In this document: in pieces, positions 3,680 to 63,252 of the stretch
Layout: each line of letters opens with the position of its first letter
Numbering within the stretch: the stretch's first letter is position 1
Origin: Pristiophorus japonicus
Lineage: Eukaryota
Assembly: GCF_044704955.1 (NCBI RefSeq)
Contig: NC_091989.1
Location: forward strand, 46,004,001-46,068,000
Direction: 5' to 3'
Length of the DNA: 64,000 bases
Translations under genes and position numbers: made by a program
The notes under the pieces: model-generated
Told to the model about the DNA's origin: nothing
The model's input: only the letters and a program-made list of their open reading frames with translations
The model's database searches: none

Positions 3680-6612
3680 TAAGAACAGAAGAATATAAGA
3701 AATAGGAGCAGGAGTAGGCCATATGTGCCCTCGAGCCTGCTCTGTCATTTAATACAATCATGGCTGATCCGATCATGGACTCAGCTCCACTTCCCCGCCC
3801 GCTCCCCATAACCCCTTAATCACTGACCGGTTAAGAAGCTGTCTATCTCGGTCTTAAATTTATTCAATGTCCCGGCTTCCACAGTTCTCTGAGGCAGTGC
3901 ATTCTACAGATTTACAATCCTCTGAGAGAAGAAATTCCTCCTCATTTCAGTTTTAAATGGACGGCCCCTTATTCTAAGATTATGCCCCCCAGTTCTAGTC
4001 TCCCCTATCAGTGGAAACATCCCCTCTGCATCCACCTTGTCAAGCCCCTTTCATAATCTTATATGTTTCGATAAGATCACCTCTCATTCTTCTGAATTCC
4101 AATGAGTAGAAGCCCAACCTACTCAACCTTTCCTCATAAGTCAATCCCCTCATCTCCGGAATCAACTTAGTGAACCTTGCCTGAACTGCCTCCAAAGCAA
4201 GTATATCCTTTCGTAAACATGGAAACCAAAACTTCACGTAGTATTCCAGGTGTGGCCTCACCAATACCCTGTACAACTGTAGCTGTAGCAAGACTTCCCT
4301 ACTTTTATACTCCATCCCCTTTGCAAAAAAGGCCAAGATTCCATTGACCTTCATGATCACTTGCTGTACGTGCATACTAACCTTTTGTATTTCATGCACA
4401 AGTACCCCCAGCACTTTGCAATTTTTCTCCATTTAAATAATAACTTGCTCTTTGATTTTTTTCTACCAAAGTGCATGACCTCACACTTTCCAACATTATA
4501 CTCTATTTGCCAATTTTTTGCCCACTCACTTCGCCTGTCCTTTTGCAGATTTTTTGTGTCCTCCTCACACATTGCTTTTCCTCCCACCTTTGTATTGTCA
4601 GCAAACTTGGCTATGTTACACTCAGTCCCTTCTTCCAAGTCATTAATATAGATTGTAAATAGTTGGGGTCCCAGCACTGATCCCTGCAGCACCCCACTAG
4701 TTACTGATTGCAAATCAGAGAATGAACCATTTATGCCGACTCTCTGTTTTCTGTTAGTTAGCCAATCCTTTATCCATGCAAATATATTACCCCTAACCCC
4801 GTGAACTTTTATCTTGTGCAGTAACCTTTTATGAGCCACCTTGTCAAATGCCTTCTGGAAATCCAAAAACACATCCACTGGTTCCCCTTTATCCACCCTG
4901 TTCGTTACATCCTCAAAGAATTCCAGTAAATTTGTCAAACATGACTTCCTCTTCATAAATCCATGCTGACTCTGCCTGACCGAATTATGCTTTTCCAAAT
5001 GTCCTGCTACTGCTTCTTTAATAATGGACTCCAACATTTTCCCAACCACAGATGTTAGGCTAACTGGTCTATAGTTTCCTGCTTTTTGTCTGCCTCCTTT
5101 TTTAAATAGGGGCGTTACATTTGCAGTTTTCCAATCTGCTGGGACCTCCCCAGAATCCAGGGAATTTTGGTAAATTACAACCAACCTACCCCTGCCGCTA
5201 CTTCTCGTAAGCCCCTAGGATGCAAGCCATCAAGCCCAGGGGATTTATCCGCCTTTAGTCCCATTATTTTACTGAGTACCGCCTCCTTAGTGATTGTGAT
5301 GGTGTTAAGTTCCTCCCCCCCTATAGCCCCTTGACTATCCACTGTTGGGATATTGTTAGTGTCCTCTACCGTAAAGACTGATACAAAATATTTGTTCAGA
5401 GTTTCTGCCATCTCAATGTTCCCCATTACTAATTCCCCGGTCTCGTATTCTAAGGGACCAACATTTACTTTAGCCTTTCTTTTCCTTTTTATATACCTAT
5501 AGAAACTCTTGCTATCTGCTTTTATATTTCATGCTAGTTTACTCTCATAGGGCCCAAGTTTGCCCAGGATTTGCTCCGTTTTTTTTTGGAGTATTTTAAA
5601 AATTGCAATTCTGCCCATTTAATTTTTTCCAGTGTAAGTGAGTTAGGTTTATTTTTAAGTTTAGTTTTTTTTCAAAACGGGGCGTTACCAGCCATTTACA
5701 CCTGTCTTGGCCATTTAAGCAAGTTTAGACAGTTAAAAGTTACTCCAAACTAACTTATGTCAGTGTATGTGACACAGAAAAACCTTGTGGTGAGTTAAGA
5801 AATCAGCGCAGGTAGCCAGAGATAAAGAGGGGGGGGGGGGCTGCGGGAAGGGAAGTGAGAGGACCGTGCAAAGCACTAAACACCTTCACAATAACATTAG
5901 GGAAGCATAAGTACATTTAAAGCACCAAGCATTAAACAAAGCACAAAAATAAGCATTCAATAACAAATGAAACATACAAGGAAGCTGAGAGGACCTGTAC
6001 CTAGCACTAAGACTTACAAAGCACTAAACAAAGCACAAAAAGTAATAAGCAATTAATTAATAAAAAATAGAAGGAACCCTGCACATAAAGCAACAAGACC
6101 AAAGGAATAAGCAATCAATCAATAACAAATAACAATAAATAACAATAACCGTGTCCAAACTACTCCTACACAGTCCCTTTCAGTACCTTCAATAGCATTC
6201 TTTTGCTGGCTCCTGCTTTATTCTAATCAATGGCAAAAATAGCACTCAGCACAATATATAAACCAAGTGCAGTGCACTTACTTCATCCATCGTGTGGTCT
6301 TGTGAACATTGCCAGCATGATTTGTCTCAATGCTTTCCAATTGTTTCAGACATTGGACACCTAACCTAACCCAATCTACTTCTTCTAAACTGATTCCCTT
6401 GTGGAAAACATCAGCATACTAACCAGGTTAAAACGGAGGTGTGCCGTTTTAACCGGAGGGGCAAACTTGGGCCCCTCGTCTATCTTCCCTTTCTTAATCA
6501 TTCTTTGCTGGCTTTTAAAAGCTTCCCAATCTTCTGTCCTCCTACTAGTTTTGGCCACTTTGTGTGCCCTTGTTTTTAATTGGATACCGTCCTTTATTTC
6601 TTTAGTTAGCCA
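3680..6612 (-). mobile_element. CR1 LINE, 5'-truncated ORF2 (RT) pseudogene, interrupted by a MITE
   Basis: ORFs 4357-5184 and 4040-4432 contain NYRPVSLTS, QHGF, LDFQKAFD, QGSVLGP and KFADNTK, with frameshifts. The 3' tail is at about 3680. The 5' part resumes at 6475-6612 after the MITE. Confidence 0.95.
5550..6474. mobile_element. PIF/Harbinger-type MITE inserted in CR1
   Basis: Perfect 16-bp TIR GGGCCCAAGTTTGCCC / GGGCAAACTTGGGCCC; CR1 sequence is continuous across the insertion. Confidence 0.85.
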
Positions 6613-14975: not shown

Positions 14976-15931
14976 TGCACTCACAGTGATTAACAATTCA
15001 CAGTACAGCCTACGGTCTAAATTCAGCTGTAACCTTATACGCCCAATATCCCCATCTCTGAATGTTTCACTTCTGAAATCGTCTTTCCCCCCTCTCTTTT
15101 TAGCAGCATGGGTAGTAAGTAGAAGATAGAACTGTTGGCAAAGGTAACTAGGAGGTAATGAAAAGAGTAAAGCAGCAACCACCAGAAGAGTTATTAAAAC
15201 ATAAAAACCTCAAAATTACATCTAGTGATATTAGCAAAAACATGTCTAGATTATTTGAATAGACTAATGACTCCGCTAAAATAATAGACAAAGCAACACA
15301 CAAAATGTTAAGTATTCTTCCATCTATAGCACCAATAATGATTTTGAGTCTAGATTCTTATATGAGAGATAATAATGTGAGGTGCTGTAACAGTGCACAA
15401 GAAAACGCAGAACATGTTCACTACTAGCAGCTGAAAATATTGCCATTTAGTAAATCCAGTGTTTGTCTGATTACAGTTGTTTTAATGAATTTATTGGTCC
15501 TGAAATTCCAGTCGGAGGCTTCTTTTGGACGAATGCCTCCGACCGGAGAATTTTTACGAAAGTACCTGGTGGTCCAGGAGGAGCGTGGGATTCTGTTGGG
15601 GAGGCCTTCTCTTCCCGCGCTGCGAAGCGTGCTCCCGTCCTCGAGGTTCCCACGCAAAAGGTGCAGTCACGTGTGACTGCTCAGCCAATCAGGTACAGTA
15701 TTTCACAGCTTTCTCATTAATAGCAATGAGAACTGTGTATCTACGAGTTCTCACTGCTATTAATGAGAGAAAAAAAACAAACACACTACACACCATAATA
15801 AAAAATAAAAAACACACCTCACATAATTAAAATTAATTGAAATTAAAGTTAATAAATGTCTTAGAAAAAAAAATGATTTTTTAAAAAGTTTTTTAAATTA
15901 TGGTTTAAAATAAATCAGGGTTTTTAACAAT

Positions 15932-16362
15932 TGATGTGGAGTATGACAAAGGCACTCAACACAGGCCTGTTGTGGAGAAAATAATTGTTTAATTGCTTGA
16001 TTAAGGGAGACATGGTCTACACCAGTTCCTTAACTGGATACCTTCCCACCGTTCTCATCTAACACTTCAGGAGCTGCTTCTTTTATCCAGAATTTCTTTG
16101 CAAAGTCATCATTTACATTATCATTGGTCAGTCTTTCTACCGCGTGACAATTTTTTCAACATCCTCCCTGGGTATGAACATATATACCCTGCATCCTGCC
16201 ACTAACAGGAATCTATTTCTTAGTTCTGAATAACAACTGGAAACCACTTCCTAGGCCTACAACATTAGCTCTGAATAACAGGAATTGCACCATTGTCCTA
16301 CAGCAAATTGTGTTTTTGCCTTCCTAATCTAAAACATGTTTAACTCTTTAATTCCCACTTCA
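15932..16362 (-). repeat. 3' LTR of the ERV (431 bp)
   Basis: Direct repeat of 21654-22110, preceded on the minus strand by PPT AGAAGGGGGAAT (16363-16374). Contains CCAAT, GATAAAA and ATTAAA in order on the minus strand. Confidence 0.95.
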
Positions 16363-16482
16363 ATTCCCCCTTCTGCTACATGGTTATTCTATTAACCCAC
16401 CGTGACCAATCTTTTTACCTTACTAGTCTTGTGTGTCTCCCGCCCCAATTTCGTTGATCAGGCGATAGGATCACGACTCATA

Positions 16483-18756
16483 TCAGGTGTTGGTTTGGTT
16501 CGTCGCCCCTGTTACTTTCAGCAAAGGCTTCCTTTCGGATTTCTGAGCGGCTTTTACCAACGCTTTCATCCTTCTCCTCCTACATCTAAAGCACCATTCA
16601 AACAGTAACATAAGTACAATCAACATCTGCACTATCACTAATACATCTGATATAATTCTTATCCAAGGGTGTACATGAACATTAATTCCAAAATTCCATT
16701 GGCCAACACTTTCTTTGTGTCCTTTTGCAGCTTAACAATCTTTTAATCACGATGATGTATTTTTTTCGTTGCTCACAAACACTCTTCTCCAACTCTGTCT
16801 GTTCCTCACTTAGTTTGGGAATGGATTTTCCCTGAGGCTCTTCGAAGACCTCGTACCCTGCCTTTATAGTGTCTACCACCATTCCACTGGTAGTTTCTTC
16901 TTTTAATTCTGGGTATATAATCTGTCCCTGAATATTAACCTCTTCTCTGGTCGTGAAGCAAAAAGTCGGTGGTAGTGATGGGGCAGTGTGTTACTCCTCC
17001 CACAAACATGTTAGTGGCTATGGAGCTGACACACCATTGCTCGTTACTTTGTGATGCTGCTGTTGTCTCGAAATCCAGCATCAACGGGGTTATGCTCAGG
17101 ACGCATCCTTCTGTGCGGCTGTATCCACAATCACCTTGATCAAATTTGGGATCTTCTCGGCACAAAACAACCTGGTTATTCTTATAACAATCTTTAATGC
17201 ACACACCCTTGGTATCATCTCCCTTCTTAATAAAGTATTGGTGCAGTTTGTGGTATCTGACCCGTGTGTTTGGTTTCTTATTTCTCCTACATTAGAATTC
17301 CATAGAAAATAGGTGCAGGAGTAGGCCATTCGGCCCTTCGAGCCTGCACCGCCATTCAATGAGTTCATGGCTGAACAATGCAACTTCAGTACCCCCTTCC
17401 TGCTTTCTCGCCATACCCCTTGATCCCCCTAGTAGCAAGGACGACATCTAACTCCTTTTTGAATATATTTAGTGAATTGGCCTCAACAACTTTCTGTGGT
17501 AGAGAATTCCACAGGTTCACCACTCTCTGGGTGAAGAAGTTTCTCCTCATCTCGGTCCTAAATGGCTTACCCCTTATCCTTAGACTGTGACCCCTGGTTC
17601 TGGACTTCCCCAACATAGGGAACATTCTTCCTGCATCTAACCTGTCTAAACCCATCAGAATTTTAAACGTTTCTATGAGGTCCCCTCTCATTCTTCTGAA
17701 CTCCAGTGAATACAAGCCCAGTTGATCCAGTCTTTCTTGATATGTCAGTCCCGGTATCCCGGGAATCAGTCTGGTGAACCTTCGCTGCACTCCCTCAATA
17801 GCAACATTGTCAACTCTATACAGGAGGTTTCCCTTGGTCACATCATATTGTGGTATTGACAGTACAAATCCAATTATATTCTGATGACCAGTTACACATT
17901 TAGTTTTAGGAACCCATGCATGGCTGTTTCACCTGATTTCACAGGCATCTGTTTCCCTTTTTCTCAAGGTCCATTCCCTGAATACATCATTGATAATCCA
18001 ATCTGGGACCTCCCCATTTTGTAGTTGTTCGAAGTTATGTTCTACTGTACTTATCATCCATGCTCCATACCCGGCGCAAATCGCGGCATTTCATCCGCTT
18101 TCGCTATATTACTTTTGGTTTGCATTTATTAAGTTAATTGTCTTGGCATGATCCCTTAGTGTGTGGGTCATTTGTAACAATTCTCGTTCGGCCCCATCTC
18201 CCAATTGGGCATGCATTTTCTCATTATCATTTCCCCTTTCCAGCAACCCTCTTAGGGTTTTGGTGAATGTGCCAACCTGCTCTTTTACCATCTGGAGATC
18301 TATAGTGTTTACCGTGGCTACGCCCGCCACATATCCCACGCCCATCATTTCTAATATCCCCCTTTTTCGTCTAAGCTTCCCTTTTAATTAGATAAACCTC
18401 AGGGTCTTAGACTCGGGTCCATCTAAGGCCCGCAGTGTCAGATTTTTATACGTGCTTATTGTTTTTGACATGCCGGAACTTGGGATTGTTAGATCGATCA
18501 GATTTAGAAATATCATGATTATCTTCTGGCATATTCTAGTGCGTTTTTTTCCTTTGTGTATTTCATTACTAACCCCACTTTGGCCCCCTTTGTTATGTGA
18601 GGGCACATTGGAGTTCTCCTCATACACAGGAACATCGTTTCCTCTCCTGTATGATTGTGTCAACTTGTACTTCCCTCTGGGGCAGGTGATGGGCTATTAG
18701 TTTCTTCCTTGTCCTTGTAGAATTATAAGGGCGGTGGTGATCATGTTTATATGCAT
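16483..18756 (-). pseudogene. env: env pseudogene, class I fusion glycoprotein resembling Mononegavirales F
   Basis: Joined by hand across stops, frameshifts and a CR1 insert: signal-like MITTALIIL; furin site RRKR (18361-18372); fusion peptide GILEMMGVGYVAGVATVNT; heptad region; IIGFVLSIP..LYRVDNVG; Cys cluster C-x8-C-x10-C-x7-C; TM IISDVLVIVQMLIVLMLLF; basic tail CFRCRRRR; stop at 16483. Confidence 0.8.
17294..17803 (-). mobile_element. CR1 3' fragment inserted into env
   Basis: [15 protein letters not shown]...WNSLP. Flanked by the 5-bp duplication ACATT (17289-17293, 17804-17808); removing it restores env DNVGEIRN. Confidence 0.95.
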
Positions 18757-18796
18757 TCTGTTGATAAAGCACACCCTGGATATTCCAGGCTTTTAG

Positions 18797-18940
18797 TTAG
18801 ATTCTTACCATTTCTACTTCTACCGGATTGTTTGTACCGTTTCTCCGGGCATGTGACCTTTCCCAGGTCCATTTTATTATGGCAAGTACACCTAGTATTG
18901 CAAATATTAATCCTAGTCCCCCGAAAAGTCCATCTATCAA
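18797..18940 (-). CDS. Putative small single-pass membrane accessory ORF of the ERV (47 aa, TTG start or spliced)
   Basis: LIDGLFGGLGLIFAILGVLAIIKWTWERSHARRNGTNNPVEVEMVRI*, lying between the pol stop (18957) and the env start; no ATG. Confidence 0.4.
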   Translation of the reverse strand: MIDGLFGGLGLIFAILGVLAIIKWTWERSHARRNGTNNPVEVEMVRI

Positions 18941-18956
18941 TGCATCCCTCCACTCC

Positions 18957-20155
18957 TTATTCTTTCAGCTGGGACCAATGTTTCCATCGTCCCCCACCTT
19001 TCATATTGACGCATGCACACGTGTCTCCGCTAATCAGTACCTCATAGTGTCCGCTCTGTCAAGGGACCAATCCAGATTTTTCTGGTAATACCCTAACCAT
19101 TACCCTTGCCCCCACCTTGGGTACTCCCGCCGGGGGTTTTGTTCTTTTATCCTCGTCTTCCTCTTCCTGCTTATCTCGCACTTCCTGTCACATACCTTTC
19201 CACTGCCTACTCAGTTCCATCACATACTTCCTAATTCTATCACACAAAGGTCCTAAATCTACTCCTCCTGTAACTATTCCCTCAGGGAGTTTCATTGCTC
19301 GTCCAGTCATTAGTTCACAAGGGGTGAATCCTGTTGTGCGGTTCGGTGTAGCACGCAGTCTCATCAATATGGTGGGCAGGAGTTCCGGCCATGCCTGTCC
19401 GGTTCCCTGGATTGCTTTACTCTGGGAGGTTTTGAGGGTTCTATTCATTCTTTCTACCATTCCCAAACTCTGGGATGGTAGGGGATGTGGAATTTCTGCT
19501 TAATGTTCAGTATTTTACAAGTTTCCTTCATTACCTTTCCTATGACATGAGTTCCTTGGTCCGAATCTATCTGAATGGGAATCCCCCATCTAGGAATGAC
19601 CTCTTCCGCTAATATATGGACTACTGTGGTTGCGGTTAATTCTTCTACACCATCCAGCGGTCCCTGCATCACTACCTCAAGATGCTGGTTTAATACCGCC
19701 CATCCCGTACGTGGGTGGCCGTCGACGTACCGTCGGGATCCGTCCACATACAATGTGAGACCTGGGTTTTCGAGAGCTACCTGACTTACATTCCCTGGGG
19801 AATCTTCCCATTCTAATGCGTTACACTCGTGGGGCTCCCCACTAGTGAGGATTCATTCTGCCGTGTTTTCCCTGGTGTCTCTGACTATCTTTACTGATTC
19901 ATCGTGGGGCAGTAAAACGGCTTCCCACTTCGGTCGGCGGACATTGGAGACGGCCTGGAGCTTTCCAGTATTCAACATTTCTACCAGAGTGTGTGTGGTG
20001 TGTGGGACAATTTTGCCTGCCATCACGACAGGTTTGCTGACCTTGACTGCCCATGTGGCGCAGTCTAGTGCAGCCACGCATCTGGACAAGCCCGCGGCTA
20101 CTGGTGATCATTGGGGTGAATAGTAAGCTATGGGTCTCATTCTGTCCCTGTGCAT
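18957..20155 (-). pseudogene. pol: pol remnant: tether (degenerate RNase H), RNase H N-terminus, integrase core and C-terminus
   Basis: RPIAYYS..SPVAAGLSRCVAA (tether); YVDGS...GWAV (RNase H); WGIP..IDSDQGTH, YHP, GMVERMNRTLK (integrase); GHYEV...WKHWSQLK (C-terminus). RT and protease are absent. Confidence 0.9.
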
Positions 20156-21039
20156 TTCTGTCTCTCATCAGAGAAAATGGCATTTTTAGATTGTTTCCAA
20201 ACTTTTACTATTTTTTTCCGCTAAACTGTTTAGTATTACTTCTTTTACAAAGGTTTCCAATACAACCAAAATGTTTATCAAGAAGAATATATCAAACTCC
20301 CAGTTCAAATACTGTACTGCAAATCTTTTTATTTAAATCTCTTTTACTAAACTAGAAGCTTTCACATCATTTAAAATAAGATCCTACTCAAAGGAAACGA
20401 GGGCAGAGCTTCCCCAGCCTCAAGAAACCCACACAGGCTTTTTAAGAAAAAAAATGACATTACAATCTTCCCTTCTCCTTTCTTTATCTCATTCATAGAC
20501 TAAATTTAGTATCTTTCAACCCAATGTAATCAATGATTACGTGTTTTTTTTTAACACACGTAATTGGGCGTCTCAGCCTGCAATAACCAAATTGAAAAGA
20601 CAACACTTTGTTTACGATTCTAATTGATTTAAAATAAGCCACACATTTTTAATTGAAGTGTTATCTTTTGTTACACAACCCTATCCTTTGTGCATTTCCT
20701 AGCTCCATAACATCAAAATAAATCCATATCTGTGTTTCTAACTTAAAGTGTCATTCAATTTGACATGCACAATTCAACTTCTTCACATTTTCTGAAACTT
20801 CCCACAGCTAGGACAATACTACAAGGGTTAAAAACTTTCAGCTCTCTGCCCGAAAAAGGTGGGTGGAGCTAAAACAAACATACAGATACACCATTTCTCT
20901 TTTAAAAGACCGGCTTTCAGACAAATGAAACATTCATTAATTCCCATCTCAAATATTCTACAGTCAAGAAGACTTCCATGCAACCACTTTCATTCAACAA
21001 AGCTTATCTTTCTCTTCCTCAGCACAAAAGCTGAAGCTT

Positions 21040-21325
21040 CTGTGATGGTGTTATATTCTTCTTAGATCTACCCACTCTATCTCCTATTCTTAATTTGCGC
21101 AATTCCTCTAATTGAGACCTGGCCATGGCCTTATATTGCAAACATTGACTAACCATCATCAAACCTGTTTTGGCCGTGTGTTTATTTGCCTTTCTCCCAC
21201 CATAATTTTGTTTGCGGGTTTTCTTTCGGATCCCATCCTTCACTTAACATCGTAACTAACAATTTTTTGTGGTCGTCAGCAAAATACCTACTCAGCGAAC
21301 CTTCCGGCCCCCAACCTGGCATATT
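21040..21325 (-). pseudogene. Probable N-terminal gag remnant
   Basis: Frameshifted MPGW.PEGSLSRYFADDHKKLLVTMLSEGWDPKENPQTKLWW...SQLEELRKL after the leader. Assigned by position only. Confidence 0.4.
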
Positions 21326-21633
21326 TTTTCACGCCATCTATTTTTGGTACGTCTACCCCTCTATCGGTTCGTTGTCCCCTTTAACCTGGTTTCCTCAAAC
21401 CTAGGGTCTGCAATTACAAACCTACGAAGCCGATCCTACTTTGATAATTACTATTGTGGCCTCATAACTACCCTCAAGTCTTTTACACCATTACAGACCT
21501 TTCTCACAAGCTCGGACACCCCAGGCAACCGACACGTTTCGCGGCAGATTATATCGGATTTATGAGTGGTATTTAGAATATTTACTCACTCGTGATGGTC
21601 TCCAAACGTCTGCCTGACTTTCACCCGGGCGCG

Positions 21634-21651
21634 TCCTGCCAGACTACGCCA
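21634..21651 (-). promoter_or_regulatory. Primer-binding site, tRNA-Ser
   Basis: TGGCGTAGTCTGGCAGGA, 2 nt after the 5' LTR. Complementary to the tRNA-Ser 3' end UCCUGCCGACUACGCCA with one extra base. Confidence 0.85.
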
Positions 21652-21653
21652 TT

Positions 21654-22110
21654 TGATGTGCAATATGACAAAGACACTCAATACAGGCCTGTTGTGGAGA
21701 AAAGAATTGTTTAATTGCTTGATCAAAGGAGACACGGTCTACACCAGTTCCTTAACTGGATACCTTCCCACCGTTTTCGTCTAACACTTCAGGAGCTGCT
21801 TCTTTTATCCAGAATTCTTTGCAAAGTCATCATTTACATTATCATTGGTCAGTCTTTCTACCGCGTGACAATTTTTTCAACATTCTCCTTGGGTATGAAC
21901 ATTTATATCCTGCATCCTGCCACTAACAGGAATCTATTTCTTAGTTCCTAATAACAACAGGAAGCCACTTCCTAGGCCTACGACATTAGCTCTGAATAAC
22001 AGGAATTGCACCATTGTCCTACAGTTGCACCTGCTAATTTCACCACATCAGCAAATTGTGTTTTTGCCTTCCTAATCTAAAACATGTTTAACTCGTGAAT
22101 TCCCACTTCA
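21654..22110 (-). repeat. 5' LTR of the ERV (457 bp)
   Basis: About 21 substitutions plus 1-bp and 27-bp indels versus the 3' LTR (manual count, about 5%). Confidence 0.95.
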
Positions 22111-38018: not shown

Positions 38019-41000
38019 ATTGTCTCTATGATGCCACACAGGAGAAGATTTAAATGGCATACACCCCATTCACGCAAGACAAGCTGACTAGTCCCATAGC
38101 ACGCACCAAAAATCAACTGGTATCCAAAATGTTTATTCTGCTGGAACACCTGGAGAACACTAAATATGCATAATTATCCAAAGTAAATTTAGGCCCTTTA
38201 TGTATGCAAAGGGCCTAATGCCTGTTTCAGATGCCAGTCCTGGACGCATATTTTGATACATATACCAATAAATCAGGCAGTCATTTCCAGATCAGAACAC
38301 GCTGCCTGCCATATGGATATTTCTACGCCTGTTTTATGCCTGTAAAATGGGTGCAGCTTAATTGAATTTCCAGACCAGGCTTTCTTCAGAAGTGGGGCAT
38401 GATGCTTCAGTGTACAGAGCCTTGGCCAGATCCCATCTACAATACTGAGTTCAGTCTTGAGCACAGAATCTCAGAAAGGCGGAAAGAACAGATTCACTAG
38501 AATGAAATCAGGACTTAAAGGTTACATTCTGAGGGCAGGTTGTAGAACAGCAGAATGACAAATGATAAAAATCTTCAACATACACAGAAAATGCTGGAAA
38601 TAGGTCAGCTGGTCAGGAAGCATCTGTGGAGAGTGTTAAGCTCATAATAAAGTATTGCAACTGAGTACTGTAGACAATGAGTAAGTGTGACCTTAGCTCC
38701 TTTAATTAAATGCCAGAGTGCTGGTATAGCATGGGAGGCCTGCTTATATACAGTGCTCCCAAGGGATGCTGGGATCCCTTGGGACTCCAACAGGTAGGCC
38801 CTCTGGTGGCGGTATGATACAGGTTGCCTAGGGTTGCATACATAACATCACTCCCTCCCAAAGGCAATAGTACACTTATTTACAGGTGAGACGATCTGGA
38901 GCTTTTCGCTCCCTTGTCGATCGTCTCGGTACAAATGCAGGTGTGAGTGAGTTGGTTGGTTCTTCGCTGGGCTGCTGGGGATGGTGAGTTCAGCTTCGTG
39001 GTCGACCATGATGTCGGTTGCCACTACTGTGTGTGTTGGAGGGTCGAAGTTGGTGGTGTCCTCTTTGGGTTGCTCGTAGCTGTGAATCGCAGTTTGGTTT
39101 AGTCCAAATGTTTTCTGCAAGTTAGTCCATTTGCAAGTTTGACCTGAAACACCCTACTCCCTCCTTTGGCTATGACGGTACCAGCAAGCCATTTGGGACC
39201 ATGTTCATAGTTGAGTACAAATACAGGGTCATTGACTTCAATATCGCATGGCAAGTTTGCGCGATCATGGTATATTGCTTTGTTGATGCCGCCTGCCCTC
39301 GACATGATCATGGAGATCAGGGTGGACAAGAGAGAGCATTTTTTTGAGCACCCTTGTCATGAGCAGCTCGGCTGGGGGAACCCCGGTGAGCGAGTGGGGT
39401 CTGGTGCGGTAGCTGAGCAGGACTCGGGACAGGCGGGTCTGCAGGGAGCCTTCCGACACACGTTTCAAACTTTGCTTGATGGCTTGGACTGCCCATTCTG
39501 CCTGGCCATTGGATGCAGGCTTGAACGGGGCAGATGTGATGTGCTTGATCCCATTGCGGGTCATGAATTCCTTGAATTCAGCACTGGTGAAGCACAGCCC
39601 ATTGTCGCTGACAAGGACATCAGGCAGGCCGTGCATGGCGAACATGGCTCGTAGGCTTTCGATGGTGGCAGTGGATGTGCTTACAGACAATATTACACAT
39701 TCAATCCATTTTGAATAAGCATCCACAACAACCAAAGAATTTTGCCTAGAAACGGGCCCGCAAAGTCCACGTGGATCCTAGACCATGGTTTGGAAGGCCA
39801 TGACCACAAACTTAGCGGTGCCTCTCTGGGTGCATAACTCAATTGATAGCAAGTGTTGCATTGGCGCACGCACGACTCTAGGTCTGAGTCGATGCCGGGC
39901 CACGACACATGGGATCTGGCTATAGCTTTCATCCTTACTATGCCTGGGTGGGTACTGTGTAAGTCGCGCATGAACGTTTCCCTGCCTCTCTTAGGCAAAA
40001 CCACGTGATTACCCCACAAAAGACAGTCTGCCTGTATGGACATTTCGTCTTTGCGCCGCTGGAACGACTTGATCTCTTCATGCATCTCCACTGGGACGCT
40101 GGACCAGCTCTCATGGAGGACCCAGTTTTTTTACATGGGACAGTAAAGGATCCTGGCTGGTCCAGGTCCTGATCTGGTGGGCCGTAACGGTTGACTTTTC
40201 GTTTTCAAATGCATCCATCACCAAGAGCAAGTCTGCAAGCTGTGCCATTTCTACTCCGGTGTGGGAAATGGTAGACGACTGAGATCATCAGCGCAGTTCG
40301 CTGTGCCTGGTCTGTGCCGGATTACATAGTTGTATGCAGACAGCGTGAGCGCCTATCTTTGGATGCAGGCAGAGGCATTGGTATTAATCCTCTTGCTCTC
40401 TGAGGATAGCTATACGAATGGCTTATGGTCAGTTTCTAACTCAAACTTAAGACCAAACAGATACTGGTGCATTTTTTTCACCCCATAAGCACATGCCAGA
40501 GCTTCTTTTTCAATCATGCTGTAGGCCCTTTCGGCCTTCGACAAACTCATGAATGCATAGGCGATCGGTTGCAATGTTCCCGATTCATTTGCTTGTTGTA
40601 ACACACACCCGACCCCGTATGAAGACACATCGCAAGCTAGCACTAAATGTTTACATGGGTTATACAAAACAAGCAGTTTGTTGGAACATAACAGATTTCT
40701 GCCTTTCTCAAATGCAGCCTCTTGTGATCTCCCCCATACCCAGTCGTCTCCCTTGTGTAACAGCACATGTAGGGGTTCTAGCAAGGTGCTTAACCCAGGG
40801 AGGAAATTACAGAAATAGTTGAGTCCCAGGAGCGACTGCAGCTCCATCACGTTCTGTGGTCTTGGCGCATTCTTGATGGCCTCCGTCTTGGTGTCGTTGG
40901 GTCTGATGCCGTCTGCCGCGATTCTTCTCCCTAAGAACTCGACCTCTGGTGCCAGGAAAACATACTTCGAGCATTTCAACCTGAGTCCCAGGCGATCTAG

Positions 41001-42149
41001 CCGACTTAGAACCTCTTCCAGGTTCTTCAAGTGATTGATGGTGTCCCGACCTATGACCAGTATGTCGTCCTGGAAAACCACAGTGCACGGAACCGACTTT
41101 AGCAGGCTCTCCATCTTCCTTTGGAAAATTGCCGCGGCCGATCGAATCCCAAACGGGCATCTATTGTAGATAAACAGACCTTTGTGCGTGTTGATGCAGG
41201 TGAGGCCTTTCGAAGATTCCGCCAGCTCCTGCGTCATGTAGGCCGAGGTCAGGTCCAACTTGGTGAACGTCTTTCCTCCTGCCAGCGTCACAAATAGGTC
41301 GTCTGCCTTGGGTAGTGGGTACTAGTCCTGTTGCAAAAAACGGTTAATTGTTACTTTATAGACCCCACAAATTCTGACCATGCCATCGCCTTTGAGAATT
41401 GGAACGATCGGACCGGCCCACTCGTTGAACTCCACTGGCGCGATGATGCCTTCTTACTGCAGCCTGTCCAGCTCAATTTCCACTTTCTCTTGCATCATAT
41501 ATGGCACCGCCCGTGCCTTGTGGTGGATCGGTCATGTACCGGAAACCAAGTGGATCTGCACCTTCGCCCCCAAGAAACTTCCGATGCCTGGCTTGAACAA
41601 CAATGGGAACTTGCTCAGAACCTGGGCACATGAGGTGTCACCGACGATCGAAAGCGCTCGGATGTCGTCCCAGTTCCAGCGGATTTTTCACAACCAGCTT
41701 CAGCCGAACAGTGTGGAGCCATCTCCTGGTACCAACCATAGCAGGAGTTCATGCACTGCTCCATCATAGGAGACTTTTACTGCTGCGCTGCCAATAACAG
41801 GGATCAGCTCTTTAGTGTAAGTTCTTAGCTTGGTATGAATGGGGCTAAACTTGGGCCTGTGTGCCTTGTTGCACCACAGCCTGTCGAAGGCCTTTTTGCT
41901 CATGATAGACTGACTCGCACCCGTGTCCAATTCCACAGATACTGGAATTCCATCCAGTTCGACTTTTAACATGATCGGTGGACATTTCCTGGTGAAGGTG
42001 TGTACCCCGTACACTTCTGCCTCCTCGGTTCAATTCTCTAGTTCAGCCTGATCCGCCATGGATCGATCCTCCTCTGCAACCTGATGGTTTGCAGCTCGTC
42101 TGCACATTCCCTGGAGGTGTCCCATTGTACCACAGCCTTTGCACACATA

Positions 42150-43918: not shown

Positions 43919-46900
43919 TAGGGAACTAGGAGTTAAATTAAAAAGCAGCACCTCAAAGGTAGTAATCTCAGGATTGCTACCAGTGCCACGTGCTAGTCAG
44001 AGTAGGAATTGCAGGACAGCTTAGATGAATACGTGGCTTGAGCAGTGGTGCAGCAGGGAGGGATTCAAATTCCTGGGGCATTGGAACTGGTTCTGGGGTA
44101 GGTGGGACCAGTACAAACTGGACGGTCTGCACCTGGGCGGGGCCGGAACCAATGTCCGAGGGGGAGTGTTTGCTAGTGCTGTTGGGGAGGAGTTAAACTA
44201 ATATGGCAGGGGGATGGGAATCTATGCGGGGAGACAGGGGGAGGTAAAATGGGGGCAGAAGCAAAAGATAGAAAGAAGAAAAGTAAAAGTGGAGGGCAGA
44301 GAAACCGAAGACAAAAATCAAAAAGAGCCACATTACAACAAAAGTCCAAAGGGACAAAGTCTGTTAAAAAGACAAGCCTGAAGGCTCTGTGCCTCAATGC
44401 AAGGCGGATTCGTAATAAGGTGGATGAATTAACTGCGAATATGATATAATTGGGATTACGGAGACATGACTCCAGGGTGGCCAAGGCTGGGAACTCAATA
44501 TCCAGGGGTATTCAACATTCAGGAAGGATAGACAGAAAGGAAAAGGAGGTGGGGTAATGTTGCTGGTTAAAGAAGAAATTAACACAATAGTAAGGAAGGA
44601 CATTAGCTTGGATGATGTGGAATCTGTATGGGTAGAGCTGCGGAATACCAAAGGGCAGAAAACACTAGTGGGAGTTGTGTACAGTCCACCCATTAGTAGT
44701 AGTGAGGCTGGGGACAGCATCAAACAAGAAATTATTGATGCGTGTAATAAAGGTACAGCAGTTATCATGGGCGACTTTAATCTACATATAGATTGGGCTA
44801 ACCAAACTGCTAGCAGTACAGTGGAGGAGGATTTCCTGGCGTGTATTAGGGATGGTTTTCTAGACCAATATGTCGAGGGACAGCCATCCTAGACTGGGTG
44901 ATGTGTAACGAGAAAGGACTAATTAGCAATCTTGTTGTGCGAGGCCCATTGGGGAAGAGTGGACCATAATATGGTAGAATTCTTTATTAAGATGGAGAGT
45001 GACACAGTTAATTCAGTGACTAGGGTCCTGAACTTAAGGAAAGGTAACTTCGATGGTATGAGACGTGAATTGGCTAGAATAGACTGGAGAATGATACTTC
45101 AAGGGTTGACGGTGGATAGGCAATGGCAAACATTTAAAGATCACATGGATGAACTTCAACAATTGTACATCGCTGCCTGTAGTAAAATTAAAATGGGAAA
45201 GGTGGCACAACTGTGGCTAACAAGGGAGATTAGGGATAGTGTTAAATCCAAGGAAGAGGCATATAAATTGGCCAGAAAAAGCAGCAAACCTGAGAACTGG
45301 GAGAAATTTAGAATTCAGCAGAGGAGGACAAATGGTTTAATTAGGAGGGGGAAAATAGAGTATGAGAGGAAGCTTGCTGGGAACATAAAAACTGACTGCA
45401 GAAGCTTCTTCTATAGATATGTGAAGAGAAAAAGATTAGTGAAGACAAACATACGTCCCTCGCAGTCAGAATCAGGTGAATTTAAAATGGGGAGCAAAGA
45501 AATGGCAGACCAATTGAACAAATACTTTGGTTCTATCTTCACGAAGGAAGACACAAATGTCCTTCCGGAAATACTAGGGGACCGAGGGTCCAGCAAGAAG
45601 GAGGAACTGAAGGAAATCCTTATTAGTCAGGAAATTGTGTTAGGGAAATTGATGGGATTGAAGGCCGATAAATCCCCGAGGCCTGATAGTCTGCATCCCA
45701 GAGTACTTAAGGAAGTGGCCCGAGAAATACTGGATGCATTGCTGATCATTTTCCAACAGTCTATCGATTCTGGATCAATTCCTATGGACTGTAGGGTAGC
45801 TAATGTAACACCACTTTTTTAAAAAGGAGGGAGAGAGAAAAGGGGTAATTATAGACTGGTTAACCTGACATCAGTAGTGGGGAAAATGTTGGAATCAATT
45901 ATTAAAGATGAAATAGCAGCGCATTTGGAAAGCAGTGACAGGATCGGTCCAAGTCAGCATGGATTTATGAAAGGGAAATCATGCTTGACAAATCTTCTAG
46001 AATTTTTTGAGGATGTAACTAGTAGAGGGGACAAGGGAGAACCAGTGGATGTGGTGTATTTGGACTTTCAAAAGGCTTTTGACAAGCTCCCACATAAGAG
46101 ATTGGTGTGCAAAATTAAAGCACATGGTATTGGGGGTAATGTACTGACGTGGATAGGGAACTGGTTGGCAGACAGGAAGCAGAGAGTTGGGATAAACGGG
46201 TCCTTTTCAGAATGGCAGGCAGTGACTAGCGGGGTGTTGCAGGGCTCAGTGCTGGGACCTCAGCTATTTACAATATACATCAATGATTTAGATGAAGGAA
46301 TTGAGAGTAATATCTCCAAGTTTGCAGATGACACTAAGCTGGGTGATGGTGTGAGCTGTGAGGAGGATGCTAAGAGGCTGCAGGATGACTTGGACAGGTT
46401 AGGTGAGTGGGCAAATGCATGGCAGATGCAGTATAATGTGGATAAATGTGAGGTTATCCACTTTGGTGGCAAAAATATGAAGGTAGAATATTATCTGAAT
46501 GGCGGCCCATTAGGAAAAGGGGAGTTGCAACGAGACCTGGGTGTCATGGTACATTCGTCACTGAAGGTTGACATACAGGTGCAGCAGGCGGTGAAGGCGG
46601 CAAATGGCATGTTGGCCTTCATATCTAGGGGATTTGAGTATAGGAGCAGGGAGGTCTTACTGCAGCTGTACAGGGCCTTGGTGAGGCCTCACCTGGAATA
46701 TTGTGTTCAGTTTTGGTCTCCTAATCTGAGGAAGGATGTTCTTGCTATTGAGGGAGTGCAGTGAAGGTTCACCAGACTGATTCCCAGGATGGCAGGACTG
46801 ACATATGAGGAGAGACTGGATCGACTGGGCCTGTATTCATTGGAGTTTAGAAGAATGAGAGGGGATCTCATAGAAAAATTTTAAATTCTGATGGGACTGG

Positions 46901-60268: not shown

Positions 60269-63252
60269 TGTGGTGCATGTAGGCACCTTTAGTAATGACT
60301 CCATGAGGCAGGGTATGGTACTTAAACTGTGCAGACCTGCAGTCCTTTATTAGCAGCTCCTGAGTGACGACAACAAGCTGTGTGTTCCTTTTTATACTGG
60401 GTTACCTGCCGTGTGCAGGCAACCCCTGGGTCTCCAGCAACAGCACCCTCTAGTGTACCGGTAAGGTGTGTACAGTACAAGGGTACATTCAATGTGGCAT
60501 GACAGTGTTACAGACATCACACAGTGAACAGGCATGCCTACACAACAATACTCCCCCTGAGCATTTTTCATATCCTAGTTGTCATGACCAGGGGAGTTGA
60601 TCAGTGGTGGGCTATTGGAGGTTGTGGTGAGGGTTGTGTGGTTGCCAGGTGTGACCCCTGTGCTTGAGGCTGGCCTTGTACGTTTCCCCTCCCTCACACA
60701 CAAACCAAGTGGGTGTCACTGTTGTGGGATCCCTCGGGGAGGTAGCCACGGCAGCAGTGGGTGGTGTGTATACACTGTGATGTGGGTAGTTGTGGGGTGG
60801 TGGGCAGGGCCACAAGACTGGGTGGGCTCCTTGTCCACCAATGGGGATGAGGGTCAGGTCATCCCAGGGTTTGCCAGGGAAACTGCAGGGTATTGGCCTC
60901 ATGTTTCTGGTGTTGGCCCTGGTGGCCAGAGGCTGTAGGGCTGGTCTGGTGCAGGTTGCCATTGGTGGTGGCTAGGCTGTCCCTGTAGTGGGTCTGCTCC
61001 CACTGCCTGTGTGTGTGTCCTGCAAGGGGCATCACATTCGTTCCACAGGTCCAGGCTACATGGTCAGGTAGCCTGCTGGAACTGGGGGTCTTGCACAGGG
61101 GGATTCCATTGGCATTAGCATGGTCCCTGTAGGACCCAATGTCCTTTGGCAGTGTCCTACCGGTATACATGACACCTTGGCTCTGATCACACATAGTCGA
61201 GCTTGCATTATACATTCTAGCACTTGCATCACTTTTGGGTGTCCTGGTTTCAACAGACATGGTTACATTAGGCATTTAACAATCTCTATCATTATTGTTA
61301 AGCATAATAAACTTGTTCTTAAACTTACTGACACCTGCATTAATTTCATTAGTCACATTAGTTAAACCAGCATTACAATTCATGGTTACATTGCATACAT
61401 TTTCATACTTGCATCCTTTAATTGCATCTTTAGCTTTAAAACTGTGTACTCAAATAGTTGGAACTTCCCCTTTAAATTTTTTTTGTTACCTGTCTCCTTT
61501 AAGGGAGCATTCAAATTCGATTTGTCGCTCGATGTCACATGATGCTCCTCCATGTTGACTCGTGGCATGGAGGAGGCCATTTTGTGGTGCTCTTTTCTTC
61601 CACATGCTTGTGGTGCTGCAGCCATTTTGTGGTCTTATTGCAGGCAGGCTGTGGTGCTCTTTTCTTCCACATGCTTGTGGTACTGCAGCTAATTTGTGGT
61701 CTTGCTGCAGGCAGGCTGTGGTGCTCTTTTCTTCCACAGCACCACTTCACCTGATGTGGACCCGGTTCATCCAATTCCTGCCCAGCAGCGTAGGACCGTC
61801 GTCGGCTACAATCCACAGGGGGAGTTTGTGCAACATGCCACCCTGGGAGCCCTGGACGTCCATACTGTCAACGATTTGGATTTTACCTTTGGTATAGATG
61901 AGCAGCTTTGCCTGGACAGGAGATAGTTTTGGTTGAGTGGCAGGATTCCTCCAAATTTTTTCAAAGGTCTTTTGGCTCATCACAGACTGGCTCGCCCCTG
62001 TGTCGACCTCCATGGAGACTGGGACCCCGTCGGTCCACTTCCATCATCCACGGAGAACTTCCGGTGGAGCATGTAAAGATCCCATACTCTTCTCCCAGGG
62101 TTTGAGCAGCTTCATCTGTGTCGGAGCCCCAGGGATTAGCCAACTCATCAGAGACACAGTGAGTGTAGCCTTTTCTGCACATTCTCTGAAGGTGCCCTTT
62201 TTCCTTGCAGCCTTTGCATGCATTGTCTTTGTAGCGGCACTGGTGGACCCTGTGGTTTCCTCCACAGCGCCAGCACGGGGCCATCCGGTTTGCCCCATGT
62301 GGTGGACTCAGGGTTGCAGGACTCGGGGCAGCATTTCTGCCTTTAGAAGTGTCCATGCGGTGCACTGCGCTCGCCGGTTTAGAGTCCTGGTCAGTATTCA
62401 TGTGGAGTCGCTAGCCGAAACCATGTAGGCTTGGCTCACTTGAATTGCTTTCTGCAGGGTGACCGTTGATGTCAGCCAAGAGCAATTTGTGTAGGAGGCC
62501 TTTGTGGACGATTCCGATGACAAATATGTCCCTTAGTGCTTCATTAAGGTGGTCGCCAAACTCACACGGTGCAGCTAGTCTTCTTAAGTGTGCAGCATAC
62601 TTGGCAATTTCTTGGCCCTCAGGTCGCCGGTAAGTGTAGAACCGGTGCCTGGCTGTGAGGATGCTTTCTTTCGGTTTTAGTTGTTCCTGTATGATTGTTA
62701 CAAGTTGCTCATAGCTCTTGGTGGTTGTCTTCTCCAGGGCTAGTAAGTCCCTGATGAGACCGTAGATGGTGGGCCCACAACTGCTAAGCAGGATGGCCCT
62801 GCGTTTGTTCGGTAGTGTGGCCGGTGTGTCCCCGTCCAGGTTGTTGGCTATAAAGAAGTGTTCCAATCTTTCCACAAAAGCGTCCCAATCCTCCCTCTCC
62901 GTAAATTGCTGAAAGTTGCTGAAGTTAGATATGTTGAGCGTGTAAGTTCGTGATCCCGTATTCCCATCAGCAGTTGTGGTGCATGTAGGCACCTTTAGTA
63001 ATGACTCCACGAGGCAGAGTATGGTACTTAAACTGTGCAGACCTGCAGTCCTTTATTAGCAGCTCCTGAGCGACGACAACAAGCTGTGTATTCCTTTTTA
63101 TACTGGGTTACCTGCCGTGTGCAGGCAACCCCTGGGTCTCCAGCAACAGCACCCTCTAGTGTACCAGTAAGGTGTGTACAGTACAAGGGTACATTCAATG
63201 TTGCGTGCAGTGTTACAGACATCACACAGTGAACAGACATGCCTAAACAACA
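60269..63252 (-). mobile_element. Non-autonomous Gypsy LTR element (gag and protease only)
   Basis: LTRs 60269-60547 and 62975-63252 (about 9 substitutions and 1 indel), TSD TTGTC, PPT, gag EDWDAFVERLEHFF, CWRCGGNH/CKGCKEKGH, protease VDTGA. No RT, RNase H or integrase. Confidence 0.93.
61576..61740. repeat. About 67-bp tandem repeat inside the Gypsy derivative
   Basis: tgtggtgctcttttcttccac occurs three times at regular spacing. Confidence 0.85.

Follow-up and report, generated by a model that had tools for sequence, protein, structure and literature searches.

Structure of the provirus

The element described here is an endogenous retrovirus (ERV) copy in the genome of the sawshark Pristiophorus japonicus. 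It occupies positions 15932-22110, on the minus strand, of a 64,000-nucleotide stretch of contig NC_091989.1 (assembly GCF_044704955.1, positions 46,004,001 to 46,068,000), which is called the window here and to which all positions refer. An earlier note, made from the sequence alone, had described it as a lokiretrovirus-like provirus with an envelope (Env) resembling the paramyxovirus fusion protein F. Comparison with related copies in the host genome (5.9 Gb searched) points to a dead, non-autonomous element, the parent of which would have been a canonical retrovirus with an F-type Env. The family of the window copy is termed F1a; F1b and F2 are other families with an F-type env, and L015, L017, L019, L020 and L021 represent families with a gamma-type env. 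Identities to L035 in the following feature list refer to an F1a copy that still carries the reverse transcriptase (RT).

15927..15931, plus strand: target-site duplication ACAAT, left copy
15932..16362, minus strand: 3' long terminal repeat (LTR), 431 bp, TG..CA
16363..16374, minus strand: polypurine tract, preceding the 3' LTR
16483..17293, minus strand: 3' part of the env F core with Cys-rich domain, heptad repeat B, transmembrane (TM) anchor and basic tail; frame changes
17294..17805, minus strand: 3' end of a long interspersed nuclear element (LINE) inserted inside env, ACATT flanking both sides; present in no sister copy examined
17806..18575, minus strand: 5' part of the env F core with F2-like segment, RRKR, fusion peptide and heptad repeat A; 90% DNA identity to L035 env
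18576..18799, minus strand: replacement 5' end of env with a short hydrophobic leader, standing where RT-bearing copies have a Cys-rich N-terminal module of about 180 aa
18800..18964, minus strand: small single-pass membrane open reading frame (ORF) between pol and env, 5'-truncated; in F1a and F2 copies with RT it has 66-68 aa
18958..19636, minus strand: integrase core and C-terminus, broken; rve E=6.3e-7, 91% DNA identity to L035
19650..20161, minus strand: 3' part of the tether and 5' part of RNase H, cut short by a deletion; 88% DNA identity to L035
20162..21080, minus strand: AT-rich (34% GC) non-coding spacer of about 0.9 kb replacing capsid, nucleocapsid, protease and RT; in RT-less copies, not in RT-bearing ones
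21081..21330, minus strand: 5' remnant of gag (matrix region), frameshifted, about 100 codons; tblastn 48-50% to gag N-termini of relatives
21634..21651, minus strand: primer-binding site TGGCGTAGTCTGGCAGGA, following the 5' LTR
21654..22110, minus strand: 5' LTR, 457 bp, TG..CA; 84% to the 5' LTR/leader of L035
22111..22115, plus strand: target-site duplication ACAAT, right copy

The primer-binding site is presumably of the tRNA-Ser type; the same type of site occurs in F1a, F1b and F2, and the gamma-env families use another. Neither RT nor protease was found in the provirus, gag is reduced to its 5' remnant, and DNA homology of the gag region to L035 stops at 21081. The window env still shows an RRKR cleavage site (18361-18372), a hydrophobic fusion peptide, a region rich in Cys and a TM anchor (at about 16594-16656), and it is broken by frame changes, the LINE and stops, four of them in frame in the 5' part of the F core. 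The 3' LTR is short of about 27 bp that the 5' LTR has, and the two differ by about 5% (Kimura two-parameter distance, K2P, 0.051-0.056), which would correspond to about 12 million years under the mammalian rate applied in PMC7947760 and to about 120 million years under the shark rate assumed in PMC4422223.

The LTR query gave 40 scored matches in the host genome, many of them as pairs, and sister copies show 5-bp target duplications of their own, so the arrangement is not a chance pattern. The provirus is a genuine ERV copy that is now dead. The complete proviral frame reported in the earlier note (TG..CA LTRs, ACAAT duplication, polypurine tract) was borne out by the coordinates and the sister copies, as were the pol remnant, the env features and the insertion inside env, a LINE 3' end the right edge of which now lies at 17805 instead of 17808; the AT-rich spacer, the RNase H/integrase deletion and the small membrane ORF had escaped it. 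The shark host that it proposed is supported: the protein P0007, labelled Pristiophorus japonicus by UniRef and the sole homolog that the env query gave, matches the host genome at 100% over 386 aa. As a locus the window copy is dead and ordinary; the interest lies in its family.

Predicted F-type fold of the envelope

Ranking of env in the Atlas placed Fusion F0 first (0.94), followed by Baculo_F and Gypsy clusters. A structural model was obtained from 43 sequences for the env of L036, an F1b copy 67% identical to the core of the window's family (predicted local distance difference test, pLDDT, 69). Foldseek searches with this model returned the F proteins of respiratory syncytial virus (E=3e-11) and human parainfluenza virus 3 (E=1.5e-10). 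In VIA the top nine rows were all paramyxo- or pneumovirus F proteins with Z scores of 8.3-10.4 (for example 3maw: Z 10.4, root-mean-square deviation, rmsd, 19.5, 300 aligned), and foamy virus Env reached Z 7.1-7.4. The BFVD matches comprised lispivirus glycoproteins, baculovirus F, feline foamy Env and the Env of walleye epidermal hyperplasia virus 1 (WEHV-1) and walleye dermal sarcoma virus (WDSV). With hhalign, shark Env aligned to lokiretrovirus Env at 98% (E=2e-14) with 17% identity over 356 columns, and a broad env profile gave lokiretrovirus Env 57 bits.

Several observations weigh against this assignment. Pfam returned no family, Fusion_gly included, for the window env pieces or the unbroken env frames of the family, and a single-sequence search of the PDB with env found nothing. 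The first structure prediction, from eight sequences, reached a pLDDT of only 34; the usable model is that of an F1b copy, with a pTM of 0.49 and large rmsd values (5-33 Å). A profile built from shark sequences only gave lokiretrovirus Env 7.5 bits (best of 200 shuffles: 1.2). A profile search of the PDB had foamy Env 8rm1 on top at a weak E=0.06 and otherwise coiled-coil noise, and PF00523 gave one weak match over the host genome, none above the cut-off.

Taken together, the structural predictions identify Env as a class Ib fusion protein of the paramyxo-/pneumovirus F type with nested domains and two heptad repeats, and the profile alignment argues for a real but remote homology of shark and lokiretrovirus Env. 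The F-like envelope proposed in the earlier note is thus supported by the modelling. Of the alternatives it had listed for Env, a gamma-type TM was not matched, while paramyxovirus F could not be told from baculovirus and errantivirus F, all of which were matched together. A gamma-type Env was rejected for the window's family, as TLV_coat had no match in the window env pieces or in P0001, P0005 and P0006 and matched the gamma-env sister families at E 2e-16 to 1e-12.

The F proteins of paramyxo- and pneumoviruses are cleaved, insert a fusion peptide and refold by two heptad repeats. By analogy, Env would act as an F-like fusogen that is cleaved at RRKR, inserts its fusion peptide and refolds in the same way. 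The Cys-rich N-terminal module differs between F1a, F1b and F2, and neither a Pfam family nor an Ig domain was seen in the three modules; by the same analogy this variable part is likely to serve receptor binding or attachment.

The env profile search yielded 41 proteins, 20 of which were looked up (three nameless). Those with a name belong to Pristiophorus, Mustelus, Chiloscyllium, Heterodontus and Scyliorhinus, to the skate genus Rhinoraja and to the frog genera Pelodytes, Xenopus and Mantella. In the Env tree, which has long branches and weak deep support, lokiretrovirus Env stands on a long branch outside the shark and frog Env.

Three further observations concern envelopes beyond the window's family. 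The BFVD entries Q9WHI8 and A4GTG3, predicted Env of walleye epsilonretroviruses, match the F-type model; in our literature search no paper was found that states such a match. Several F-type Env proteins, from frogs or nameless, that are relatives of the shark Env (P0051, P0074, P0068, P0065 and P0067) had no match to short motifs of the published lokiretrovirus set. One more type of env was seen within this pol clade (L018:1907-2788): its N-terminal module is a different one, and it briefly matches the beginning of the F2 family core (47%, E=2e-7), the rest of which was not seen in that locus.

Placement of pol among retroviruses

The RT placement was taken from RT-bearing sister copies; L035, L052, L027 and L025 are such copies. 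Their RT can represent the missing one because the window copy and L035 are 84-91% identical at the DNA level in all parts that they have in common, namely LTR, 5' part of gag, tether/RNase H, integrase and env. Lokiretrovirus references in the RT trees were L071, L073 and L076, identified by motif match. Snakehead retrovirus (SnRV) was represented by the Pol P0009, again by motif match and as the only SnRV sequence, and murine leukaemia virus (MLV) by Rauscher MLV Pol (P0136).

The RT motif is PQG in L035, P0003, P0094 and relatives, whereas PFG stands at this conserved site in 24 of 24 published lokiretrovirus sequences. In the RT trees lokiretroviruses split from every canonical row at 100/99, and the RT-bearing family copies grouped with MLV, epsilonretroviruses and SnRV. 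An approximately unbiased (AU) test rejected a single clade of the shark family and the three lokiretrovirus RTs (p=0.0003). Two RT trees placed the shark families in a clade with gamma- and epsilonretroviruses and several unnamed fish lineages, with SnRV just outside; in one of the two they stood in a polytomy beside a ten-row clade (100/99) of MLV and epsilon-like rows, WDSV not among them. Gypsy rows were separate at 100/99. A related RT had its best PDB match in MLV/XMRV (240 bits, versus 170 for foamy virus and 98 for Ty3). The integrase fragment of the window itself grouped with L035 and L023 (100/99) in a 19-row clade (99/97) that excludes lokiretroviruses; CGIN1 was not among the rows. 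RNase H of the shark family is 25% identical to that of lokiretroviruses, 28-30% to frog and coelacanth rows and 40-57% to SnRV, MLV, other fish and class-I-like references; the RNase H tree, from which the window and lokiretrovirus rows dropped out and which held no foamy reference, is uninformative on lokiretroviruses. Family copies have RT_RNaseH_2 as well as RNase_H (dual RNase H: tether and RNase H) and show the features of canonical retroviruses: LTRs, primer-binding site, polypurine tract, target duplication and the order gag-pro-pol-env with protease, RT, tether, RNase H and integrase.

The host genome had no match to the lokiretrovirus RT motif pattern. With a lokiretrovirus RT as query, 147 scored matches at 36-40% identity and none above 40% were obtained, these numbers being lower bounds (two lokiretroviruses are 69% identical to each other). 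Five of the 147 loci were opened: no match to F1 or lokiretrovirus env and no PFG at the RT site was found in them, and four had the canonical PQG. A further, very abundant canonical ERV family with many open frames of 1423 codons (L078-L082) was seen in the host genome, with motifs resembling those of the frog and coelacanth sequences P0010 and P0124. Motif scans of metagenomes yielded seven loci, of which three were lokiretroviruses, one was gypsy-like and three were unrelated and dropped. The three lokiretroviruses (L071, L073, L076) are near-complete with open frames and lie in public metagenome contigs that are presumably host DNA; L073 Env matches PF00523 at E=0.002.

The following points count against the placement. 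RT was read from sister copies, the window itself having none; the position between SnRV and class I is moderately supported (98/97, and 94/96 in the second RT tree); SnRV falls inside the shark group, on a long branch, in the integrase tree; integrase is 43% identical to lokiretroviruses and 36% to MLV or SnRV; and the pol trees held no named sequences of foamy viruses, ERV-L, beta- and lentiviruses, WDSV or salmon swim bladder sarcoma virus (SSSV). On the trees and motifs, the pol lineage is best placed as that of a canonical retrovirus and not of a lokiretrovirus; it would be an unclassified lineage of fishes that stands between class I and the SnRV clade. Two other assignments were rejected: a class I (gamma/epsilon) ERV, as the RT lies outside the gamma-plus-epsilon clade, and a Ty3/gypsy errantivirus, excluded by the separate Gypsy rows and the dual RNase H.

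The family might instead simply belong to the SnRV clade (class III), its Env being divergent but of the ordinary kind; we consider this unlikely. SnRV-related ERVs are present in the elephant shark (PMC4422223), and the RT is 42% identical to that of SnRV with motifs in common. However, closer fish relatives reach 47-55%, SnRV stands outside the clade of shark families and class I in both RT trees, and the Env has no TLV_coat match and is predicted to fold as F, whereas published SnRV-related ERVs of anamniotes are described with a gamma-type Env (10.1101/2021.11.23.469661). The envelope exchange described below is unaffected by how the pol clade is named.

Exchange of F-type and gamma-type envelopes

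The nearest pol relatives in the host genome are the gamma-env families, with TLV_coat in env. In a tree of RT, tether, RNase H and integrase (19 rows), F1b and F2 branch first, followed by a 100/99 clade of the gamma-env families that has F1a inside, as sister to the gamma-env elements L015, L020 and L029 (100/100). F1a pol is 72-73% identical to the gamma-env families and 58-59% to F1b, and F1a env is 67-68% identical to that of F1b (F1a/F1 versus F2: 30-32%). AU tests rejected monophyly of the F-env families (p=6e-87), of F1a plus F1b (p=6e-6) and of the gamma-env families (p=9e-7). Groups were defined by the type of env; the tests, however, came after earlier trees had been inspected, a point that counts against them. 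Since F1a pol is nearest to gamma-env families and F1a env to a more distant F-env family, at least two envelope exchanges are shown under the pol-tree model. The simplest reading would be an ancestral F-type env, acquisition of one of the gamma type, then recovery of an F1b-type env by recombination in F1a, with an inferred direction. Two independent gains of gamma-type env require an equal number of class changes and leave the closeness of F1a and F1b env unexplained.

A single and fairly recent capture of env by a canonical retrovirus from a lokiretrovirus or mononegavirus, which would make the F-type env a derived oddity of sharks, appears improbable to us. It would agree with the homology to lokiretrovirus Env, with the predicted mononegaviral F fold and with the common incongruence of Env and Pol in anamniote ERVs (10.1101/2021.11.23.469661). 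On the other hand, the F-env families branch earliest in the shark pol clade and differ by about 70% among themselves (F1 versus F2), Env relatives occur in five other shark and skate genera and in three frog genera, lokiretrovirus Env lies outside the shark and frog Env (with the weak support mentioned above), and the BFVD matches include walleye epsilonretrovirus and foamy Env. All of this argues for an old ancestry of the F-type env and not for a recent capture.

Copies of the deleted element

All 11 elements that were fetched from among the LTR matches are without capsid, protease and RT of the family type. RT-bearing copies of the family, the four named above, exist as well. An RT query gave 40 scored matches at 87-92% to L035 (L035 itself counted), 17 of which lie within 10 kb of an F-env match (counted by eye). 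The left pol breakpoint relative to L035 is the same within 6 nt in 14 of 16 RT-less copies, the replacement of the env 5' end is common to 15 of 16, and six of 16 share the internal RNase H/integrase deletion. LTR pairs of RT-less copies differ by K2P 0.018-0.078, and the target duplications differ between copies. Common breakpoints together with separate target duplications show that the deleted form was copied as such, for which Gag and Pol, as well as Env if it left the cell, were needed in trans. Judged from these sequences, we infer that it spread in a helper-dependent manner, by proteins of a helper virus. The two dated RT-bearing copies (K2P 0.08-0.09) are older than most deleted copies, which speaks against this reading.

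In 11 of the 15 RT-less copies in which both were located, env leader and fusion core stand in different frames, so the env of the deleted form was probably defective already. Env matches without stops make up 15 of 124 in the window's family (counted by eye), and pairwise dN/dS (nonsynonymous to synonymous substitution rates) of its env is 0.58 (36 pairs).

We consider it improbable that the deleted element instead spread by reinfection through an Env of its own, acting as one partner of a split genome and providing helpers that had no env with envelope. Env was kept in 16 of 16 RT-less copies despite the loss of gag-pol, and gag/pol-deleted copies of F2 have an open env with low dN/dS (see below). 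Yet the out-of-frame leader, the dN/dS of 0.58 and the few stop-free env matches do not fit such a role, and pairwise ratios also take in selection that acted before the deletion.

Patches of the spacer (window 20162-21080) recur at 70-85% identity in deleted copies from F2 and from other F1 families (L045, L049, L028, L055-L060, L067) and were absent from the ten RT-bearing shark elements and the one lokiretrovirus element checked. This recurrence suggests recombination among co-packaged defective genomes, and the AT-rich spacer may possibly be a cis-acting element.

The small membrane ORF and the young F2 family

F1a and F2 carry, between pol and env, a conserved single-pass membrane ORF of 66-68 aa (L035:6115-6318; in L066 after the end of pol). 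Its pairwise scores exceed those of 2000 of 2000 shuffles. The ORF was absent from the seven F1b, four gamma-env and one lokiretrovirus elements checked; it has no Pfam family, and all its Atlas leads are below 0.9. We take its position to recall that of pneumovirus SH or HIV Vpu.

F2 (L061-L068, genome-wide) is a young, high-copy family that combines an F-type env with canonical pol. Among the 107 best env matches of the family, 77 are stop-free (counted by eye). In several copies the frames of gag, pol and env are unbroken and the LTR K2P is under 0.01, from which a recent invasion of the germ line follows. Some F2 copies (L055-L060, L067, L070) have lost nearly all of gag and all of pol and have an open env, the opposite of the usual env-less amplification; pairwise dN/dS of their env is 0.20 (28 pairs), pointing to apparent purifying selection. 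L070 consists of two tandem deleted copies, 99% identical over 4.8 kb, with one LTR in common.

Proposed history of the element

We put at roughly 85% the probability that the window copy is a dead, non-autonomous sawshark ERV that derives from a canonical-retrovirus recombinant with an F-type Env and was copied in trans as a deleted derivative. The parent would have had gag, protease, RT, tether, RNase H and integrase, the small membrane ORF and env. Its Env would have been a class Ib F-type protein, cleaved at RRKR with the fusion peptide at the new N-terminus and refolding by its heptad repeats. It would have been a recombinant: its pol would stem from a branch whose nearest members have an env of the gamma type (TLV_coat), its env from an F-env branch that is more distant but belongs to the same shark clade. 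In a derivative, capsid, protease and RT would then have been lost and a new 5' end of env put in place of the old one, while keeping LTRs, primer-binding site, leader and purine tract, and would have been copied in trans by helper virus proteins. The window copy later would have received the LINE insertion and point mutations.

The view of the earlier note, taken as that of a true lokiretrovirus (lokiortervirus) in a cartilaginous fish, is very improbable and largely refuted: the F fold and homology of Env, the dual RNase H, the higher integrase identity and an in-frame gag-pol stop, as in the lokiretrovirus L073, speak for it, but dual RNase H and in-frame stop occur in canonical retroviruses too, Env is only 17% identical, no lokiretrovirus RT was found in the host genome by motif pattern or RT query (lower bounds), and RT motif, RT tree, AU test, integrase tree and RNase H identity all point elsewhere, with RT inside the canonical retroviruses and the window integrase apart from lokiretroviruses.

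Other features of the window

No host gene was evident among the window frames of 200 aa or more; the window consists mostly of repeats. An Rfam scan gave no matches. Seven other LINE pieces homologous to the env insertion are present in it, as are LTR-retrotransposon pol remnants (gypsy-like by their RT_RNaseH domains), one gag-like frame and LINE RT frames (40410-41321, 62411-63052, 4357-5214 and 44923-46764). An inverted repeat of 23 bp (96%) with a loop of 11 nt lies at 15712-15768, 160 bp from the edge of the provirus.

Relation to known retroviruses and implications

Lokiretroviruses share with the shark family the order gag-pol-env, dual RNase H and an Env with RXKR, fusion peptide, coiled coil and TM that is homologous to mononegaviral F (PMC7947760, PMC9040795). 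They differ in the RT motif, in RT, integrase and RNase H phylogeny, in the low Env identity and in the primer motif: a His-type motif is frequent in the lokiretrovirus consensus set (12 matches), the shark motif has one match, in coding sequence. The defining survey had none in six chondrichthyan genomes (PMC7947760, Fig S1), in line with the host range given in the earlier note. The SnRV clade (clade Huo, CmiERV lineage I) likewise consists of canonical fish retroviruses with similar RT motifs, 42% RT identity and members in a chimaera, but SnRV branches outside the shark-plus-class-I clade, and no F-type Env is described in the passages considered of PMC4422223, PMC6001957 and PMC12193657. 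SnRV- and epsilon-related ERVs as such are known in sharks (PMC4422223, PMC6001957). The shark gamma-env sister families fit the epsilon- and SnRV-related ERVs of anamniotes with gamma-type Env, for which frequent Env/Pol recombination is reported (10.1101/2021.11.23.469661); since only gamma- and beta-type Env were screened there, exchanges of gamma- and F-type envelopes were invisible to that survey.

Foamy Env is a canonical-retrovirus Env with a class Ib F core (PMC11468914; 8rm0/8rm1; Z 7.4 for 8rm1 against the L036 model) that differs in having a leader peptide as well as, between its subunits, a large insert for receptor binding; in the shark protein the F core is minimal and the variable module is N-terminal. 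Paramyxo- and pneumovirus F, lispivirus glycoprotein, baculovirus F and the F-type Env of errantiviruses belong to the same fold superfamily (10.1101/2023.10.26.564294, PMC12583693), but at 9-15% identity and on negative-strand RNA, DNA-virus or Ty3/gypsy backbones. The Env of WDSV and WEHV-1, described as without gamma-type hallmarks (PMC9967133), matches the env model (E=8e-10 and 3e-8) but is much longer (1159-1317 aa) and was compared by predicted structure only.

An F-like Env in a canonical retrovirus (foamy virus, PMC11468914) and Env/Pol recombination among gamma-type envelopes (10.1101/2021.11.23.469661) are thus already known. Our literature search, which covered neither subscription papers nor Repbase/Dfam nor preprint supplements, where some of the pol lineages may be listed, came upon no description of a minimal F-type Env on a canonical shark pol lineage or of a gamma/F exchange. 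By its envelope the sawshark element is like lokiretroviruses and foamy viruses; by descent it is a canonical retrovirus. Published Env surveys of anamniotes and chondrichthyans were run with gamma/beta or syncytin queries, and Pfam is blind to this Env; an abundant class of shark envelopes has therefore probably been missed.

In the preferred model of retrovirus origin, canonical and lokiretrovirus lineages gained Env independently, because no similarity between their Env was detectable (PMC9040795). The shark family contradicts this premise, as it joins a canonical RT lineage to an Env detectably homologous to that of lokiretroviruses. With Env linked structurally to foamy and, by prediction, walleye Env, a single ancestral F-type Env with later replacement by the gamma type becomes testable, which also bears on the view of gamma-type Env as ancestral for epsilonretroviruses (PMC9967133). 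Within one host genome, two unrelated fusogen folds are exchangeable on nearly the same gag-pol. As a tentative idea, to which we give somewhat less than even odds, the F type may be the ancestral retroviral fusogen, kept in lokiretroviruses, foamy viruses, walleye epsilonretroviruses and a shark, skate and frog lineage, with the gamma type arising later; sharks would then have seen repeated exchange of envelopes on one gag-pol chassis, an SH/Vpu-like ORF accompanying some F envelopes, and a very young F-env family would still be intact in their germ line.

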